A stretch of DNA of 47,042 nt. It comes from Dehalococcoidia bacterium. Lineage in GTDB: Bacteria; Chloroflexota; Dehalococcoidia; UBA2979. The position numbers and the translations under genes were made by a program. The stretch spans positions 1-47,042 of the forward strand of contig SHYQ01000004.1 in the NCBI GenBank assembly GCA_009692765.1, written 5' to 3'. This document shows positions 20,020-29,367 of the stretch, piece by piece. Position 1 is the first letter of the stretch, and every line of letters starts with the position of its first letter. A model generated the notes under the pieces. It saw only the letters and a program-made list of their open reading frames with translations. It did no database searches and was not told the origin of the DNA.

Positions 20020-20660
20020 GGGGAGGAGACCCACCCCCCGGCCCCCTCCCGCTCCAGCGGGAGGGGGAGAGGAAGAAGCATGAGGATGCGAGGGGGCTGC
20101 GCCCCTCGCGCTCCCGGTGGAACGGCGCGCGGCGGGCGCGGCTCGGAGCAGAGGGGGCGGCGCGCTCCCACATCAGAACCTCTCGCCGCCCCGGCGGAGA
20201 GGGGCAGGGGCAAGGCTCCCTTCCCGGCGCGGGAAGAGGGTTCTGCCAGAGCAGAGGGTGATGCGAGGGGGCTGCGCCCCTCGCGCTCCCGGCGGAACGG
20301 CGCGCGGCGGGCGCGCCTCGGAGCAGAAGGGGCGGCGCGCTCCCGCGTCAGAACCCCTCGCCGCCCCGGCGGAGAGGGGCAGGGGCAAGGCCCCCTTCCC
20401 GGCGCGGGAAGGGGGCCAGCAGGGAAGGTGGCTTCCACCCATCCCCCCGGCCCCCTTCCCGCGCGGGAAGGGGGAGCTGGCGAGAGCGTTGCGCGCCTCG
20501 CCCCAGACCCGCAGGCGAAGCCTCCCGCTCGCGATCCGGCGTGTGCCTACCGCGCACGCCTCCGCCGGGAGCGCGAGGGGCGCAGCCCCCTCGCATCTCC
20601 CTCCGTTTCCGACCCCCCTCTCCCGCTCCGCGGGAGAGGGGACGGGGGTAAGGGTCCCGC
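20020..20660. repeat. Composite REP/REPIN-like element, copy 5, with a 175-bp tandem unit
   Basis: Units start at 20085 and 20260; triplex motifs at 20030, 20438 and 20613; inverted triloop motif at ~20562-20595. Confidence 0.93.
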
Positions 20661-22894: not shown

Positions 22895-22924
22895 CGCGCG
22901 GCGTCGAGGTCGCGCGCGCGACGC

Positions 22925-23530
22925 GACGGAAGCGGATCCTTCGACGTCCCAGTCGGCGTCGAGGTGCTGCGTGGGGCGGCCCACCCCCTGCCCCCTCCCT
23001 CGCGGGAGGGGGTTCAGATTCCAGAAGGAAATTTCTCCCATCCCCCAACCCTCTTCCCTGGCGGGAAGGGGGCTCGGACCTCGGCGCTACGCGAGAGTGC
23101 TCGGACGAGGCAGCGCGAGGGGCGGGCGCGAGCGCCGAGCGGTGAGCCGTGCCGCAGCGCGGCCGCGCTTTCAGATCCCGCGAGGCGAAGCTCTCGCGGA
23201 TCCCCCTTCCCGGTGGGAAGGGGGCCGGGGGGATGGGCGATCTCAACTTCTGGTCTCGGAACCCCCTTCCCGCGCCGGGAAGGGGGCCTCACCCCTGTCC
23301 CTCTCCGCCGGGGCGACGAGGGGTTCTGACGCGGGAGCGCGCTGCCCCCTCTGCTCCGAGGCGCGCCCGCGGCGCGCCGTTCCGCCGGGAGCGCGAGGGG
23401 CGCAGCCACCTCGCATCACCCGCTGCTCTTGCAGAACCCCCTTCCCGCGTCGGGAAGGGGGCAGGGGGATGGGCCGCCCCACGCAGCACCTCGACGCCGC
23501 GCGAGAGCTCGAGTGCTCCGCTTCCGCCGC
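22925..23530. repeat. Composite REP/REPIN-like element, copy 6 (nested)
   Basis: 30-bp perfect IR 22954-22983/23470-23499; triplex motifs at 22980, 23037, 23202 and 23437; inverted copy of the 175-bp unit at ~23260-23435. Confidence 0.93.
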
Positions 23531-24624: not shown

Positions 24625-24741
24625 CTCCCCCTTCCCGCCGGGAAGGGGGCCGGGGGGATGGGAGGATACCCCTCTGTTCCTATACTCCCCTTCCCGCGAA
24701 GGGAAGGGGCAGGGGGATGGGCCGCGCCGCTCAGTCCTCGA
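24625..24741. repeat. Half-element with two tandem triplex-type motifs, copy 7
   Basis: Motifs at 24627-24662 and 24687-24721; outer tail TCAGTCCTCGA is shared, inverted, with copies 2 and 8. Confidence 0.85.
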
Positions 24742-24786
24742 ACGCCGCACCGCCATCGCGATCGTCCGGTCGAGCCGCGAGCGCGG

Positions 24787-27069
24787 CTACTTGAACGTGC
24801 GCAGGAAGTTCACCAGGTGCCACATCTGCTCGTCGGTCAACGCGCCCCGGAAGGCCGGCATCGCGCTGCCGGGGAAGCCGCCCGCGACCAAGCCGAAGAG
24901 CACCCCGTCCGTGTGCAGCGGGACGTGCGTGCGCAGTTCCGCCGGCGGCGGCACGAGGGCCCGCGCCGCGGGGCCGTCGCCCAGACCGGTCGGGCCGTGG
25001 CAGGTCACGCATTGCGCGGCGAACAGCTCGCGCCCGATGGCGATGGAGGCCTCGTCCGGCGCGATCGGGTTGACGTTGCCCACCACCGCCGGGGCCTCGG
25101 GCGGCTGGCCGGCGTCGATGTGCCCCACGCCGTAGACGACGAGGATGCCGGCGATCGCGAGCGACGCGCCGCCCCAGTCCGCCACTCGCCCTACGCGCGA
25201 GCGCGACCACCACGCCATCGACACGCCGAGCAGCAGCAGCGCGAGCGCCACCAGCTCCCACCCGAAGGCGAGCAGCGCCGCCTGCCGCGCGGGCACGCTG
25301 ACGGGCGGCCCGCCGGCCGCCGCCGAGGGCGCGACCGGGAAGCGGAACGCCGTGCGCGCGTCGAAGCCGTCCGGGCGGCTCACCGTCACCTCCACCTGCC
25401 AGGTGCCGCGCAGGCTCAGCGCCGCGCCCTCGGCGACGTAGCGGCCCGGCCCGCCCGGGAGCACCTCGAGGTCGATCGCGCCGAGGTCGGCCTCGGCGAA
25501 CTGCACGCGGACGCCGACGCCCGTGGCGTTCGTCAGCGGCGTGCCGTCCGCGCGCGCGAGGTCGACGCTGACGCGGTTGACGCCGACGCGGCCGGGGTCG
25601 ATCGCGGTGCGGATGCGCACGCCCTCGACCGTGCGCTCCGCGCTCGGCGCGCGGGCCAGCAAGGCCTCCGCGTGCTTCGCCGGCTGGAGGCTCGCGAGGA
25701 ACCCCGCCGCGAGCAGCGCGGCCGCGACGAGCGCCATCTCGGCGGCGACGGTGCGCGTGAGCACGCGCGCGGCGGTGCGCCTCGCGGCGCCGCTCGTCGA
25801 TCGGCCCCGCGTGGCGGGGGCGGCGTCGCGCAGCCGCGGGATCGCCCAGCGCAGGTTGACCGCGCCGAGCGCGACCAGCGCGGCGAAGATCGCCGCCTTC
25901 GCCAGCACGGCGAGGCCGTACGGCGTCGCGAGCGCGGAGACGCGCGCCACCGCGATCCACGCGGCATACGCGCCGGTCACCGCGATCGCGCCCGCGGCGA
26001 GGAACGCGATCGGCGAGAAGCGCGGCGCGACGGCGGCGAGCAGGCGGCGGCGCTGCTCGACGGGCAGGCGGCGCGCGCCGAGCGCGAGCGCCAGCAGCGC
26101 GGCGAGCCCACCCGTCCACACGCCCGCGGCGACGAGGTGCATCACCGCGTTCGCGACGCCGGGCAGCGCGAGCAGCCGATCAGCGGCGGCGTGGCTCGAC
26201 AGCGCGACCGTGACGAGCGCACCGCCGAGCGCAGCGCACGCGGCCGCGCCGGCGAGCGTGCCTCGACGCACGCGGGGCGCGAGCGCCAGCAGCGCGGCCG
26301 CGAGGACCGTGAGCGCGGCGCGCGCGGCCCACATGCGCCCCCACTGGCTCGTGCCCAGCACGCGCGCCATCGGCTCACCGATCGCCGCGAGCGGCGACAC
26401 GCCGTCCCGCAGCGACGCCTGGAGCACGAGGTGCGCCAGCGACGCGAGCACCAGCAGCGCGAGCGCGCCGAAGCGCAGCCGCGCGAGCGCGCGGCGTGCC
26501 GCGGCCAGCCCCGTGCGGACGTCATCACCCGCGGCGGCGCGCGCGGCCGGAGCGAGCACCGCGAACTCGAAGAGCAGCGTGCCGAAGGCGACGAGCAGTC
26601 CGGCGAGCGCGAGCCAGCGCGCGAACGGCTCCACCGGGGAGAGCAGCGCGGGGGGCCGCGTCGCGGAACTGGCCGGCGCGTCGGGCGGCCGCGCGCCGAC
26701 GTAGAACACGTACGTGCCGCTGAGCGGATGCCCGTCGACCGTGGAGACGTTCTTCCAGACGACAGTGTAGGTGCCGCTGGGCAGTTGCGGCAGCGTCACC
26801 GTCATGCGCTGCCGGTCGGCGAGGTCGACGGCGGCGTCGCCGCCGTCGACGCGCCGGCCGGCCGTGTCGAGCACCGTCAGCGCGGAGAGCGCGGGCGCCA
26901 GCGGCTCGGAGAAGTACGCCTCGACGCGCGGGGGCGCCTGCGCCGTCGCGCTGTCGGGCGCGGGCACCGCGCGCACGAGGTTCGCGTGCGCGTGCGCGAC
27001 GCCGGCCAGCGCCGGCGCGAGCAGCGCGACCGCGAGGGCCAGCACGAGCGGCACCACCCTGGGCGTCAC
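24787..27069 (-). CDS. CopC-CopD-(YtkA/FixH-like)-cytochrome c fusion, copper resistance/uptake
   Basis: Signal peptide then HANLVRAVP, FSEPL and VDGH (CopC); SHAA, HLVAAGVWTGGL and RFS (CopD); C-terminal CVTCHG and MPAF (heme c). Confidence 0.9.
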   Translation of the reverse strand: MTPRVVPLVLALAVALLAPALAGVAHAHANLVRAVPAPDSATAQAPPRVEAYFSEPLAPALSALTVLDTAGRRVDGGDAAVDLADRQRMTVTLPQLPSGTYTVVWKNVSTVDGHPLSGTYVFYVGARPPDAPASSATRPPALLSPVEPFARWLALAGLLVAFGTLLFEFAVLAPAARAAAGDDVRTGLAAARRALARLRFGALALLVLASLAHLVLQASLRDGVSPLAAIGEPMARVLGTSQWGRMWAARAALTVLAAALLALAPRVRRGTLAGAAACAALGGALVTVALSSHAAADRLLALPGVANAVMHLVAAGVWTGGLAALLALALGARRLPVEQRRRLLAAVAPRFSPIAFLAAGAIAVTGAYAAWIAVARVSALATPYGLAVLAKAAIFAALVALGAVNLRWAIPRLRDAAPATRGRSTSGAARRTAARVLTRTVAAEMALVAAALLAAGFLASLQPAKHAEALLARAPSAERTVEGVRIRTAIDPGRVGVNRVSVDLARADGTPLTNATGVGVRVQFAEADLGAIDLEVLPGGPGRYVAEGAALSLRGTWQVEVTVSRPDGFDARTAFRFPVAPSAAAGGPPVSVPARQAALLAFGWELVALALLLLGVSMAWWSRSRVGRVADWGGASLAIAGILVVYGVGHIDAGQPPEAPAVVGNVNPIAPDEASIAIGRELFAAQCVTCHGPTGLGDGPAARALVPPPAELRTHVPLHTDGVLFGLVAGGFPGSAMPAFRGALTDEQMWHLVNFLRTFK

Positions 27070-27719
27070 CGCCGGCGCAGCGCGAGCAGGCCGAGGCCCG
27101 CGCCCGCCGCGCCGAGCGCGAGGCCAGCGAGCGCCAGCATCCGCGCGGTCGAGGCGGCGTCAGAGGCCGACTTCGCTGCTGCGCTCGCGGAGGCGGCCGC
27201 GTCAGCGGCACCCCTCGCCGCGCCCTGTATCTCGCGGGTGCTGGCCACGGCCTGCGGGAACTGGATCGCGGTGGCCGGTTCGATCAGCGCGAACGTGTTC
27301 GGGCTCGCCGTGAACGTCTGGTCGACGTTGACCGCGTCGAGCGTGCCGGTGAAGCGGAACTTGTAGACGCCCGTCGCCGTGGGCAGCAGGTCGGCGGTGT
27401 ACGCGCCGGGCGAGTTGAAGATCGTGCGGAGCGTGAACGCCTTCGTCGTGTTGCTCTCGACGTGCGTCACCTCGAGCCTCAGCGTCTGCTCGGCGCCCTC
27501 GACGGGCCTGCCGTCCTTCGTGATGCGCAGGTCGACGCCGTTCTTCTGGCTCTCGAGGGCGGGCTCGACGATCCAGCCGACGACGAACTGGTAGCCGCTC
27601 ACATCGCGGCGCTCGTGCGCCAGCGCGACTGCGGGCGTCCCGACCAAGACGGCGAGCGCGAGCAGCGCCGCGGCGGGGAGCGCACCGCGCGGGCGCATGC
27701 CAGAGCGAATCGGGGTCAC
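27066..27719 (-). CDS. Exported membrane-anchored protein with mature N-terminal His (putative copper chaperone)
   Basis: GGAGGAG-6nt-GTG start; signal peptide ALA|HE; VGWIVEP; beta-rich domain; C-terminal TM + RRR; GTGA-coupled to the copCD fusion. Confidence 0.8.
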   Translation of the reverse strand: MTPIRSGMRPRGALPAAALLALAVLVGTPAVALAHERRDVSGYQFVVGWIVEPALESQKNGVDLRITKDGRPVEGAEQTLRLEVTHVESNTTKAFTLRTIFNSPGAYTADLLPTATGVYKFRFTGTLDAVNVDQTFTASPNTFALIEPATAIQFPQAVASTREIQGAARGAADAAASASAAAKSASDAASTARMLALAGLALGAAGAGLGLLALRRR

Positions 27720-27725
27720 GGGTAT

Positions 27726-27795
27726 CTCCTCCACGCGGTGCGCATGATCGACGTGCCGCCCGCGGGCGGCCGCGGTCATGCGCGCGGCGGAGGAG
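27726..27795 (-). promoter_or_regulatory. SD-sequestering mRNA hairpin (anti-SD inside the Pro codons of the leader ORF)
   Basis: On the mRNA, CTCCTCC (27795-27789) pairs with SD GGAGGAG (27732-27726); GCGCATGA (27783-27776) pairs with TCATGCGC (27747-27740); inner palindrome at 27755-27770. Confidence 0.75.
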
Positions 27796-28189
27796 CGGGC
27801 ACCGCCGCCACGATGCCGGGCGGCCGCGTGGGGAGCGCGGCGTCGACGACGATCGACGGCGCGCCGGCGATGGCGAGCGGCGCGGGCGTCGCGAGGGCGA
27901 GCGCGCCGGCGACGCCGGCGTCCGCCGCGGTGAAGACGACGTCCGTCGAGGCCTCGGCGGCGCCCGCATCGCGGGCAGCGGGGGCGTCGCCGGGGTGGCG
28001 GTGAGCAGGGACGGCGACCGCGAGCTCGCCGCCATCGCGGAAGACGTGGCCGTGGTCGGGGCGCCGACCCAGCAGCCCCGGGTCCACCACCAGGGCCAGC
28101 GTCGACGGCATCAGCGCGGCCGCCGCGAGCGCCGCCAGCAGCGCCGCCACCAGGCGCGAGGAGGGCTGTCGAGGCTGCGCAACGACCAT
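27776..28189 (-). CDS. Putative regulatory leader/arrest peptide (137 aa; TM, HGH/HRH, C-terminal PAPPPRA)
   Basis: N-terminal hydrophobic helix, two HxH motifs and a Pro-rich end; TAGAGT -10 box 6 nt before the ATG. Confidence 0.65.
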   Translation of the reverse strand: MVVAQPRQPSSRLVAALLAALAAAALMPSTLALVVDPGLLGRRPDHGHVFRDGGELAVAVPAHRHPGDAPAARDAGAAEASTDVVFTAADAGVAGALALATPAPLAIAGAPSIVVDAALPTRPPGIVAAVPAPPPRA

Positions 28190-28326
28190 CGTCGAACTCT
28201 AGCCGCTGCCACCGGGGGTGGGTAGTGGTCGTTGGGCATCCGCCAGCGGGACGTTCGGCCCCCCGGCGAGTACGCTGGGCTGCCGCGCGGGATCGCCACG
28301 CGACACGTTGGAGAGGATACCGATCG

Positions 28327-29046
28327 ATGACGACCGACTGGCCGGCGCTCGCCACGCGCCTTGAGGCCGCGCTGGGGCTGCAAACGCCCCCCATCGCGAT
28401 CACGTTCGCCGCCGCCGCCCCCGCCGGCGTTGCGCCCTTCGCCGCGCCGATGCCCACGCCCGCCGACGACGGGCGGACGGGACGCGTCGCCGCGGGCTGC
28501 GTCTTCTGGATGCACGGCAGCGAACGCACCTTCGCCACGGTCGCGGAGGACCACGCGAACTGCTCGGTGGGCAGCATGACCCACGGCTTCAAGACGCTCG
28601 ATGAGGTCGCGGGCAACGGCGACGTCGCGGCGCTGCTGGAGGCGGGCTGGGTGACGCTGGATGTCGTGCCGCAGATCCCGGTGGTGCGCGAGCGCCCCGG
28701 CGCGGTGGTGTACGGCCCGCTGGCGCAGACCGCGGAGGACCCCGACGTGGTGATGCTGCGGATCAGCGGCCGCCAGCTGATGGTGCTGAGCGACGCCTAC
28801 CCGGGCCTGCGCATCGAGGGCAAGCCGCAGTGCCACATCATCGCGATCGCGAAGGAGCAAGGCGAGCTCGCGGCGTCGGTCGGCTGCCAGCTCAGCCGCG
28901 TGCGCACCGGCATGCCCAACGGCGAGATGACGTGCGCGATCCCCGCCGCCCGGCTCGCCGAGGTGGTCGACCGCGTCGAGCTTACGGGGGTCGCCGACAA
29001 CGCGGTCGCGCGCTACGCGGCGGCGGACATGCAGCGCTTCGCCTAG
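28327..29046 (+). CDS. DUF169-family protein
   Basis: LGLQTPPIAITF, AGCVFW, DHANCSVG, VVYGPL, PDVV, KPQCH, SVGCQLSR. Confidence 0.75.
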   Translation: MTTDWPALATRLEAALGLQTPPIAITFAAAAPAGVAPFAAPMPTPADDGRTGRVAAGCVFWMHGSERTFATVAEDHANCSVGSMTHGFKTLDEVAGNGDVAALLEAGWVTLDVVPQIPVVRERPGAVVYGPLAQTAEDPDVVMLRISGRQLMVLSDAYPGLRIEGKPQCHIIAIAKEQGELAASVGCQLSRVRTGMPNGEMTCAIPAARLAEVVDRVELTGVADNAVARYAAADMQRFA

Positions 29047-29069: not shown

Positions 29070-29335
29070 GCCTCGAGGACTGAGCGGCGCCCGCGCCGGG
29101 CGCGTCGAGTTGGGCGCGGGGGCGGCCCTTCCCCCTGCCCCCTTCCCGGCGCCGGAAGGGGGGACTTCTTTCTTGTGGGGGCTGCGCCCCCACGGGCCCC
29201 GCGCCACGAAGCGAGCCGCCATCGGGTCGGTGCACCTGGAGCGATCCGAGGAGCCCATCGCCCCGCGCCCCTCCGAGGCGCGCCCACCGCGCGCCGTTCC
29301 GCCGGGAGCGCGAGGGGCGCAGCCACCTCGCATCA
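29070..29335. repeat. Composite REP/REPIN-like element, copy 8
   Basis: Triplex motif at 29126-29162; triloop variant at 29175-29193; inverted triloop motif at 29299-29332. Confidence 0.9.
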
Positions 29336-29367
29336 TCCTCTCGCGCGCCGTACAGCAGCCGGACGTG

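Follow-up and report, generated by a model that had tools for sequence, protein, structure and literature searches.

CutF of Rhodobacter capsulatus, a DUF2946 protein (Ozturk et al., mBio 2023 = bioRxiv 10.1101/2022.11.11.516240; bioRxiv 10.1101/2025.02.05.636593), ends in the proline motif P109-EPEGPPPRL-118; exchange of PPP for PAP is reported to abolish control and elongation factor P (EF-P) to counteract the pause (10.1101/2025.02.05.636593), and a stem-loop, which the stalled ribosome is thought to open, masks the Shine-Dalgarno sequence (SD) of cutO. In Bordetella pertussis, arrest on CruR (Bp2923), also of DUF2946 (Roy et al., mBio 2022, PMC9426467), keeps the downstream genes on under copper scarcity, and the spacing from metal motif to arrest motif in DUF2946 is described there as tight, about 45 residues (within one or two). 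Leaders with RAPP or RGPP, including SLIV_16130 and SLIV_18480 of Streptomyces lividans, were found upstream of YcnI, PCuAC, PepSY and thioredoxin-like genes (EMBO J 2025, PMC12992588). Here, a family of small leader proteins with four histidines and a CutF-like end is described from a 47,042-nt stretch of a Dehalococcoidia genome (contig SHYQ01000004.1, assembly GCA_009692765.1; the whole stretch is called the window below), in which one member, of 137 amino acids (aa), precedes a group of putative copper genes. Conservation of the parts, gene contexts and RNA pairing were computed, and together they suggest, with a probability of roughly 0.65, that the leader acts in cis and senses metal through its nascent chain, in the manner of CutF and CruR.

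The leader gene and its family

The initial annotation had noticed a Cys-free open reading frame (ORF) of 137 aa with HGH and HRH motifs and a PAPPPRA-stop end, 56 nt before the next gene, and all of these are present on the minus strand. The parts are as follows, with the basis of each assignment in brackets.

27776..28189, minus strand: leader ORF, 137 aa, Cys-free, ATG start (sequence, coding signal, homologues)
28085..28156, minus strand: predicted N-in/C-out transmembrane (TM) anchor, residues 12-35 (AlphaFold2 helix, positive-inside bias)
28046..28054, minus strand: first His pair, H46-G-H48, family motif P-x-H-G-H (invariant in alignments of 16 and 60 sequences)
27995..28003, minus strand: second His pair, H63-R-H65, family motif H-x-H-P-W-D (invariant in the same two alignments)
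27776..27793, minus strand: Pro133-Pro134-Pro135-Arg136-Ala137-stop, proposed polyproline arrest site (proline conservation, CutF-like end)

The C-terminus reads VPAPPPRA and is followed by TGA, and the GTG start of the next gene lies at 27719, 56 nt past the leader stop. The coding status was checked because DNA of 77% GC is full of long spurious ORFs. The leader ORF is a genuine, conserved protein gene: its GC content by codon position was 0.87/0.62/0.91, a gene-like pattern, and the third-position GC content of the seven neighbouring genes was 0.92-0.97.

Five homologues of 133-134 aa (E 7.7e-23 to 1.2e-7) were obtained from a collection of 5.8 billion proteins. With a 16-member profile, a leader copy was found in 48 of 99 genomes of the same Dehalococcoidia order, sampled as the single family present in the genome collection, and one genome carried as many as five copies. 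In an even sample across the phylum, 8 of 401 genomes matched at E<=0.01; apart from the window's own genome, two matches were full-length, both upstream of a homologue of the gene starting at 27719. In two copies from another Chloroflexota family, L024 (G415) and L025 (G168), which lie upstream of a YtkA-like gene, the TM segment persists together with the His pairs (as HEH...HEH/HLH), and the C-termini are PP-rich tails without PPPR-stop. A 60-member profile searched against 1.84 billion representatives matched 376 clusters at E<=1e-3 (168 at E<=1e-10), with lengths of 97-191 aa, and all but a few of the 150 matches listed aligned to the very end of the profile. No Pfam family was matched by the window leader at E<=0.1, and no NCBIfam model by four members of the family; the nearest clusters in the ESM Atlas were unnamed Chloroflexota and Myxococcota proteins, a CzcI cluster at rank 30 (score 0.94) being a lead only.

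Conservation was concentrated in the two functional parts of the proposed device. H46, H48, H63, H65, P133, P134 and P135 were the sole invariant columns of the 16-sequence alignment, and in the 60-sequence alignment (mean column identity 25%) the four histidines, P134 and P135 alone were invariant, with P133 and P102 nearly so. The conservation of TM segment, HxH motifs and prolines that the initial annotation had proposed as a check was thus borne out, the four histidines and terminal prolines being the only invariant columns. Of 71 copies taken from loci, the window copy included, 65 carried xPP[RQK] no more than 8 residues from the C-terminus; the residues after the motif numbered 0 in 10 copies, 1 in 46, 2 in 1, 3 in 3, 4 in 1 and 6 in 4, and PPP[R/Q/K] followed by 0-1 residue and the stop was found in 56 of the 65. 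Six copies lack the motif; among these are truncated or degenerate ones, the two distant relatives from the phylum-wide sample, and two whose ends read PRPRA or PRLRA. In the same 65 copies, the His pairs were separated by a median of 12 residues (interquartile range (IQR) 12-12; 17 in the window copy), the distance from the second pair to PPP had a median of 76 residues (range 63-111), and 43 copies were free of Cys. Among 147 further database representatives, 146 contained two HxH motifs 8-22 residues apart, 132 carried xPP[RQK] within 8 residues of the end (several others end in PPP[ILE]x), with a tail of one residue in 102 and of none in 12, and 80 had no Cys; the spacing from His to PPP again had a median of 76, with a minimum of 62. 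This minimum of 62-63 residues would suffice for the ribosomal tunnel plus the crossing of the membrane.

The N-terminal helix, initially called an export/TM helix, is present and is better termed an N-in/C-out membrane anchor. The AlphaFold2 (AF2) model built with the 60-sequence alignment (mean predicted local distance difference test score (pLDDT) 71, predicted template modelling score (pTM) 0.41) contained a helix at residues 12-35 with a pLDDT of about 90 and a small sheet of strands 47-52, 55-57 and 84-87 that holds the His pairs, the remainder being coil. The N-side of the helix was the more positive one in 137 of 146 family members, and the median TM hydropathy was 2.12; from this positive-inside bias the histidines are predicted to sit outside the membrane, about 10 residues past it. 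A second, moderately hydrophobic segment lies about 15-45 residues before PPP (about residues 92-116 in the window), its centre at a median of 30 residues (IQR 25-34) before the prolines; in the genus of the window it is TM-like, with a Kyte-Doolittle value of about 2.5, and in other genera it is weak. During the pause proposed here, the segment would occupy the ribosomal tunnel or its mouth. A role for it as a force generator was considered and rejected, since with its centre 30 residues from PPP it would still be largely within the tunnel. A C-terminal sorting signal (motif, TM segment, basic tail) was likewise rejected, the order of elements being unsuited to such a signal.

These predictions would also fit a stable protein, namely a membrane-anchored copper-binding protein with a four-His site, acting as a chaperone or accessory subunit for exported cuproprotein-maturation factors, with PPPR as a structural or interaction motif and the hairpin described below as ordinary translational coupling. 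The predicted TM helix and three-stranded sheet around the His pairs, the second hydrophobic segment and a family length of 110-190 aa, comparable to that of many real proteins, all agree with it. A conservation limited to four histidines and the terminal prolines, with the rest drifting to 25% column identity, does not, and neither does the placement of PPP within 0-1 residue of the stop in 56 of 65 copies, which is as in validated arrest leaders. In view of these points and of the codon choice and downstream genes considered below, such a protein is regarded as an unlikely alternative.

Compared with CutF, the window leader is likewise the first gene of a copper operon, shorter than 150 aa, probably exported with its metal motif outside the membrane, and provided with a C-terminal PPP-R-x-end and a stem-loop that masks the SD of the next gene. 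The CutF analogy drawn in the initial annotation proved closer than had been claimed, since CutF ends in PPP-R-L and so has the same PPPRx-end. The window leader also falls within the rules by which Ozturk et al. collected CutF-like proteins (137 aa, PPP at 133-135, N-terminal TM segment by AF2, same-strand gap of 56 nt). The two differ in the metal site (in CutF a CxxxC motif and a further two Cys, here four His with Cys usually absent), in the N-terminus (a cleavable signal peptide in CutF, a probable signal anchor here), in the distance from metal motif to PPP (about 45 residues against a median of 76), in the target (a Cu-induced detoxifying multicopper oxidase against uptake and maturation genes) and in the host, which is R. 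capsulatus for CutF and Chloroflexota for the present family.

DUF2946 (PF11162) itself gave no match at E<=10 in the whole genome of the window; sub-threshold matches came from a single one of the 60 locus copies, at E = 0.0093, and from 2 of the 147 representatives, the better of them at E = 0.034, and a search of 301 Chloroflexota genomes for DUF2946 returned four marginal matches, all with internal stops. The family has no above-threshold match to the PF11162 model, lacks the Cys motif (CXXC/CxxxC) and the spacing of about 45 residues, and shares with DUF2946 the N-in/C-out TM segment, the Pro-rich extreme C-terminus and the position as first gene of a copper-homeostasis operon. A distant homology to DUF2946 may exist: the weak matches fall preferentially on DUF2946, and the Atlas neighbours include a CzcI cluster.

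CruR resembles the present family in standing at the head of copper-acquisition operons, and the neighbours reported for CruR/DUF2946 (PepSY_TM, Sco, PCuAC, YcnI and CopC; PMC9426467) belong to the same families as those of the leaders described here. Unlike them, CruR is reported to have a CXXC motif with RAPP three residues from the end, to act by Rho-dependent termination across a long intergenic region, and to have a dispensable export signal and no involvement of EF-P. The RAPP/RGPP leaders are also small TM or secreted proteins with a C-terminal Pro arrest motif and the same copper-related targets, and SLIV_18480 has a predicted His-based copper site, in a protein with four TM segments (PMC12992588). 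Their motif is R-[AG]-P-P, that of the present family P-P-P-[RQK], and none of the family C-termini listed here ends in RAPP or RGPP; the EMBO J 2025 survey would therefore miss the family, because only RAPP/RGPP was searched in it (PMC12992588). SecM, MifM, VemP and ApdA/ApdP are similar in being leaders, exported or inserted cotranslationally, whose pause unmasks the next SD (PMC10987492), and differ in that, as described, they sense translocation force rather than metal and have no sequence kinship with the family.

Pairing between the end of the leader gene and the next SD

It had been claimed from the letters that the Ala-Pro-Pro codons of the leader contain CTCCTCC, the exact complement of the following SD, and that the last codons and stop pair with a segment just before that SD around a perfect inner palindrome. 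Both statements hold: CTCCTCC (27789-27795; codons GCT-CCT-CCG, Ala132-Pro133-Pro134) and GGAGGAG (27726-27732) are exact complements, and GCGCATGA (27776-27783) is complementary to TCATGCGC (27740-27747) and encloses the palindrome. Folding of 27700-27830 by RNAfold, in line with the check proposed at the time, gave a single long hairpin from 27795 to 27726. Its elements are the following.

27726..27795, minus strand: long hairpin that takes in the leader's last six codons and stop and masks the next SD (RNAfold)
27789..27795, minus strand: anti-SD CTCCTCC, with rare codons GCT and CCT (sequence, RNAfold)
27726..27732, minus strand: SD GGAGGAG of the YtkA-like gene, 6 nt before its GTG (predicted fully paired)
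27755..27770, minus strand: perfect 16-nt palindrome within the hairpin (sequence)

The predicted energy was -74.2 kcal/mol, against a mean of -65.3 (sd 3.6) for shuffled sequences (z = -2.46; 1 of 200 as stable), and in the predicted ensemble the SD of the window was paired with probability 1.00, entirely with the leader's last 8 codons and stop.

The same analysis was extended to 60 junctions between a leader and its next gene, 8 of the 68 available being dropped (in six the downstream start was ambiguous or distant, and in two the gap exceeded 130 nt). Overall pairedness of the SD was rejected as a measure because shuffled junctions pair almost as much; the choice of partner alone discriminates. 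Pairing of the SD with the stall-site stretch, defined as the leader's last 8 codons, the stop and the next 15 nt, averaged 0.53 against 0.22 in dinucleotide shuffles; it was >=0.5 in 36 of the 60 junctions, and in 21 of the 60 the observed value was attained by no more than 2 of 40 shuffles. The position of the anti-SD varies, lying in the Pro codons at some loci and right after the stop at others.

Codon choice contributes to this pairing. When the last 8 codons were recoded synonymously with the peptide fixed, the mean observed pairing of the SD with these codons, 0.354, was to be compared with 0.175 (Wilcoxon nominal p = 2e-4), and of the 24 loci with pairing >=0.5, 16 were matched by no more than 1 of 25 recodings; for the window leader the values were 1.00 and a mean of 0.30, and 0 of 25 recodings reached the observed one. 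CCT accounted for 37 of 190 Pro codons in the motif as against 126 of 1814 elsewhere (Fisher nominal p = 1.5e-7); CCA is enriched likewise, so slow decoding may be selected too. Hairpin arms from the same locus paired at -20.35 kcal/mol and non-cognate arms at -17.81, with 0 of 5000 permutations as low. The window shares 23 helix pairs with its closest orthologue, in G006; for two of them, at the codon after Arg, both partners have changed and the pair is kept. The anti-SD pairing, whose covariation the initial annotation had proposed to look for, is thus supported from three sides: the choice of codons, the compensatory changes and the complementarity specific to each locus. An anti-SD created by codon choice also speaks against the stable-protein explanation, which has on its side the 24 of 60 junctions that showed no specific masking of the SD.

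It could be argued that the RNA is all that matters: selection for a C-rich anti-SD would have produced PPP incidentally, and the hairpin would serve as a translation-independent terminator, attenuator or processing site. C-rich Pro codons naturally pair with GGAGG, and the hairpin is very stable. PPPR is kept, though, with CCG/CCC codons that make a poor anti-SD, and also where the anti-SD follows the stop or is absent; the peptide motif is therefore itself under selection. Conservation of the His motifs and of the TM segment is moreover seen at the protein level, the hairpin is not followed by a U-tract, and a terminator scan of 27600-28400 found no site. An element acting through RNA alone is accordingly considered very improbable.

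Genes downstream of the leaders

A same-strand downstream ORF was present for 68 leader copies. These ORFs were clustered by blastp (E<=1e-8, single linkage) and one or two representatives per cluster were searched against Pfam, with the following result.

YtkA-like (HERR) protein: 28 of 68 copies
SCO1/SenC: 21 of 68 copies
His-rich lipoprotein: 6 of 68 copies
Unnamed lipoprotein: 4 of 68 copies
CopC: 3 of 68 copies
PepSY_TM: 2 of 68 copies
PCuAC: 1 of 68 copies
Singletons: 3 of 68 copies, one of them 394 nt away and probably unrelated

By these assignments the leader-linked genes look like copper acquisition and cuproprotein maturation, not resistance. One leader type thus stands before many different targets, which points to a regulator rather than a dedicated partner protein; for the stable-protein explanation, at least six unrelated downstream families would be unexpected. 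Two observations concern the less familiar members. The leaders L051, L052, L059, L066, L069 and L081 are followed by a lipoprotein (about 290 aa) that carries an N-terminal His-rich stretch, EHDHSTHxH, has weak DUF2846/DUF4399 matches only, and is a candidate new metal-binding lipoprotein. After the leader L090 (G009), the next gene encodes a 143-aa lipoprotein with C-x-x-C-H (cytochrome c-like) and no recognised copper protein.

In the window itself, the leader is followed by two genes.

27066..27719, minus strand: 217-aa exported protein with a weak YtkA-like match (alignment of the 217-aa protein, Pfam)
24787..27069, minus strand: 760-aa fusion protein CopC-CopD-YtkA-cytochrome c (Pfam)

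The 217-aa protein has a signal peptide whose last residues are AxA, a mature N-terminus that is invariantly H-E-R-R, and a TM anchor at its C-terminal end. It matched YtkA-like PF13115 at E = 0.021 (15.9 bits, cut-off 25.9) and no NCBIfam model above cut-off, and it is present in 18 of 41 related genomes. It is probably copper-binding and may represent an undescribed copper-binding family; the AxA-HERR junction predicts a mature N-terminal His, like CopC- and YcnI-type copper sites. The initial annotation had suggested collecting the ORFs upstream of its homologues, and a leader was present directly upstream at 12 of 17 other loci, one of the remaining five having no upstream DNA and the other four, all distant, no recognisable leader ORF. 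The 760-aa fusion, whose start overlaps the stop of the 217-aa gene by 4 nt, matched CopC (2.3e-20), CopD (4.2e-16), Cytochrome_CBB3 (3.6e-11) and YtkA (1.2e-5) in Pfam.

The leader stop of the window overlaps an ATG (ATGA, 27776-27779) in the frame of the downstream gene, which reads TTGA in the G006 orthologue (L031); a start there would lengthen the downstream signal peptide by about 20 residues, but since the extended frame is closed in the other orthologues, translation more likely begins at the SD-led GTG at 27719. Upstream of the leader, a DUF169 gene diverges. GC-rich intergenic repeats of 70-200 nt, up to 94-96% alike and in both orientations, occur at 20064-20620, 22923-23530, 24627-24748 and 29102-29341, with the palindrome CCCCCTTCCCGCGCGGGAAGGGGG as their core; copies flank the operon region, one just past the CopCD gene and one beyond the DUF169 gene, and the repeats produce many of the spurious long ORFs of the window.

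Proposed mechanism and its significance

The start of the transcript can be placed from one further element and its recurrence in the family.

28196..28201, minus strand: -10-like hexamer TAGAGT, 6 nt upstream of the leader ATG (sequence, family enrichment)

No SD was seen between TAGAGT and the ATG. A TANNNT hexamer 4-9 nt upstream of the candidate start was found in 22 of 71 copies (1.27 expected), at a spacing of exactly 6 nt in 15 of the 22, and in 17 of the 28 YtkA-linked copies. The closeness of TANNNT to the start and the absence of an SD suggest that the leader mRNA is leaderless and that the operon promoter lies in front of the leader. A consensus scan of 27600-28400 (27720-27780 included) for promoters and terminators returned 0 sites, and since shuffled sequences also gave 0 promoter-like sites, it is uninformative at such GC. 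Three sequencing runs were listed for the stretch, all DNA from freshwater metagenomes and none RNA.

The interpretation of the leader as a regulatory arrest peptide, advanced in the initial annotation, is supported by the conservation and pairing described above, and the nascent-chain sensor would work as follows; that the ribosome stalls, that metal binds, which metal it is and which way the operon responds are what we infer. The mRNA would probably be leaderless and begin at the leader ATG. The nascent chain would be anchored N-in/C-out, with the four His exposed outside the membrane at least 62 residues before the ribosome arrives at Pro-Pro-Pro-Arg-x-stop. A ribosome lingering on PPP or on the stop would cover and unwind the PPP codons, the stop and the nucleotides just after it, which make up the hairpin's 5' arm, and opening of this arm would free the SD of the YtkA-like/CopCD genes; without a lingering ribosome the hairpin would re-form and the SD would be masked. 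Metal, most likely copper, at the four-His site would alter the dwell time of the ribosome. In one possible form, the small His/beta-strand domain would fold on binding metal and thereby pull on the chain; with plentiful copper the pause would then be shorter and the operon turned down. That copper lowers expression is a guess by analogy with CruR, and this direction is favoured because the targets are acquisition and maturation genes.

A simpler coupling would need no metal-dependent pause: any ribosome that finishes the leader would open the hairpin, PPP would lengthen its occupancy, and the histidines would have another role in the released peptide. The stop codon does lie inside the hairpin, so that plain termination would unmask the SD too, EF-P is present in the genome, and the His-to-PPP spacing is not tightly fixed. 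On the other hand, the two modules, the four His and the prolines, are invariant together and linked by a minimum distance of 62-63 residues, the identified targets are all copper-related, and in CutF and CruR the metal motif is reported to be required for regulation. Such constitutive coupling is considered improbable.

Several results weigh against the leader being a metal sensor of the CutF/CruR kind. The proline motif of CutF alone is reported not to be a strong staller in LepB fusions. A tight His-to-PPP spacing like that of DUF2946 was sought, and only a lower bound was found (63-111 in the loci). EF-P is encoded in the genome of the window, and it normally relieves PPP pauses. The overall pairedness of the SD in the 60 junctions showed no excess over shuffles (0.72 vs 0.68), stall-site pairing was below 0.5 in 24 of the 60, so that masking is not universal, and individually only 6-7 of the 60 cognate arm pairs ranked within the best 5%. 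The loci are related and not independent, and all p-values given above overstate the significance for this reason. The second hydrophobic segment and the small predicted beta-sheet leave room for a stable folded membrane protein.

The concept as such is known and rapidly gaining ground, and parts of the present case are already in print: the CutF papers report His-only CutF-like clusters next to HupE/UreJ and His-containing CutF-like proteins, Ozturk et al. 2023 calls Chloroflexota CutF-like proteins 'scarce', and a His-based candidate leader has been reported from Streptomyces (PMC12992588). What the initial annotation suggested, an HxH variant in a different phylum, is accordingly novel as regards its detail, not its concept. 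In the literature on DUF2946 in Chloroflexi and on copper, His or polyproline arrest peptides, no description of the leader family was found, and the supplementary lists of the CutF papers may tabulate members. What appears to be new is a coherent, Cys-free family with four His, matched by no model and having a CutF-type PPPRx end, its occurrence in several copies per genome within one Dehalococcoidia order, its pairing with SCO1, PCuAC, CopC, PepSY_TM and YtkA-like/CopCD genes, and the probable leaderless start of its mRNA.

For annotation, the family provides a signature (a TM helix, HGH, HxH about 12 residues on, a gap of at least 62 residues, PPP[RQ] plus 0-1 residue, and the stop) that can be used to locate copper-controlled operons in genomes without recognisable copper regulators. 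The roughly 70 copies and 376 database clusters constitute natural variation for studying how metal outside the membrane may tune a polyproline pause.

A wider picture, in which copper handling in this Dehalococcoidia order is governed mainly at the ribosome by four-His PPPR sensors, is put forward as a tentative and, taken as a whole, rather doubtful one. If it were true, up to five paralogous sensors per genome would each gate a different gene (SCO1, PCuAC, CopC, YtkA-like/CopCD or PepSY_TM), many of them on probable leaderless mRNAs; a copper-folded extracytoplasmic four-His beta-domain would pull the polyproline pause free and switch acquisition genes off, with the signal carried across the membrane by the nascent chain; and the family would represent, unseen by current domain models, a His-only branch of the CutF/CruR principle that is either independent or very remote. 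So far, nascent-chain metal sensing has been elucidated in proteobacterial systems, CutF and CruR, that use Cys motifs. If a leader family has been multiplied into a small regulon in uncultured Chloroflexota of fresh waters, the DUF2946 model understates both the spread and the chemical flexibility of the principle.

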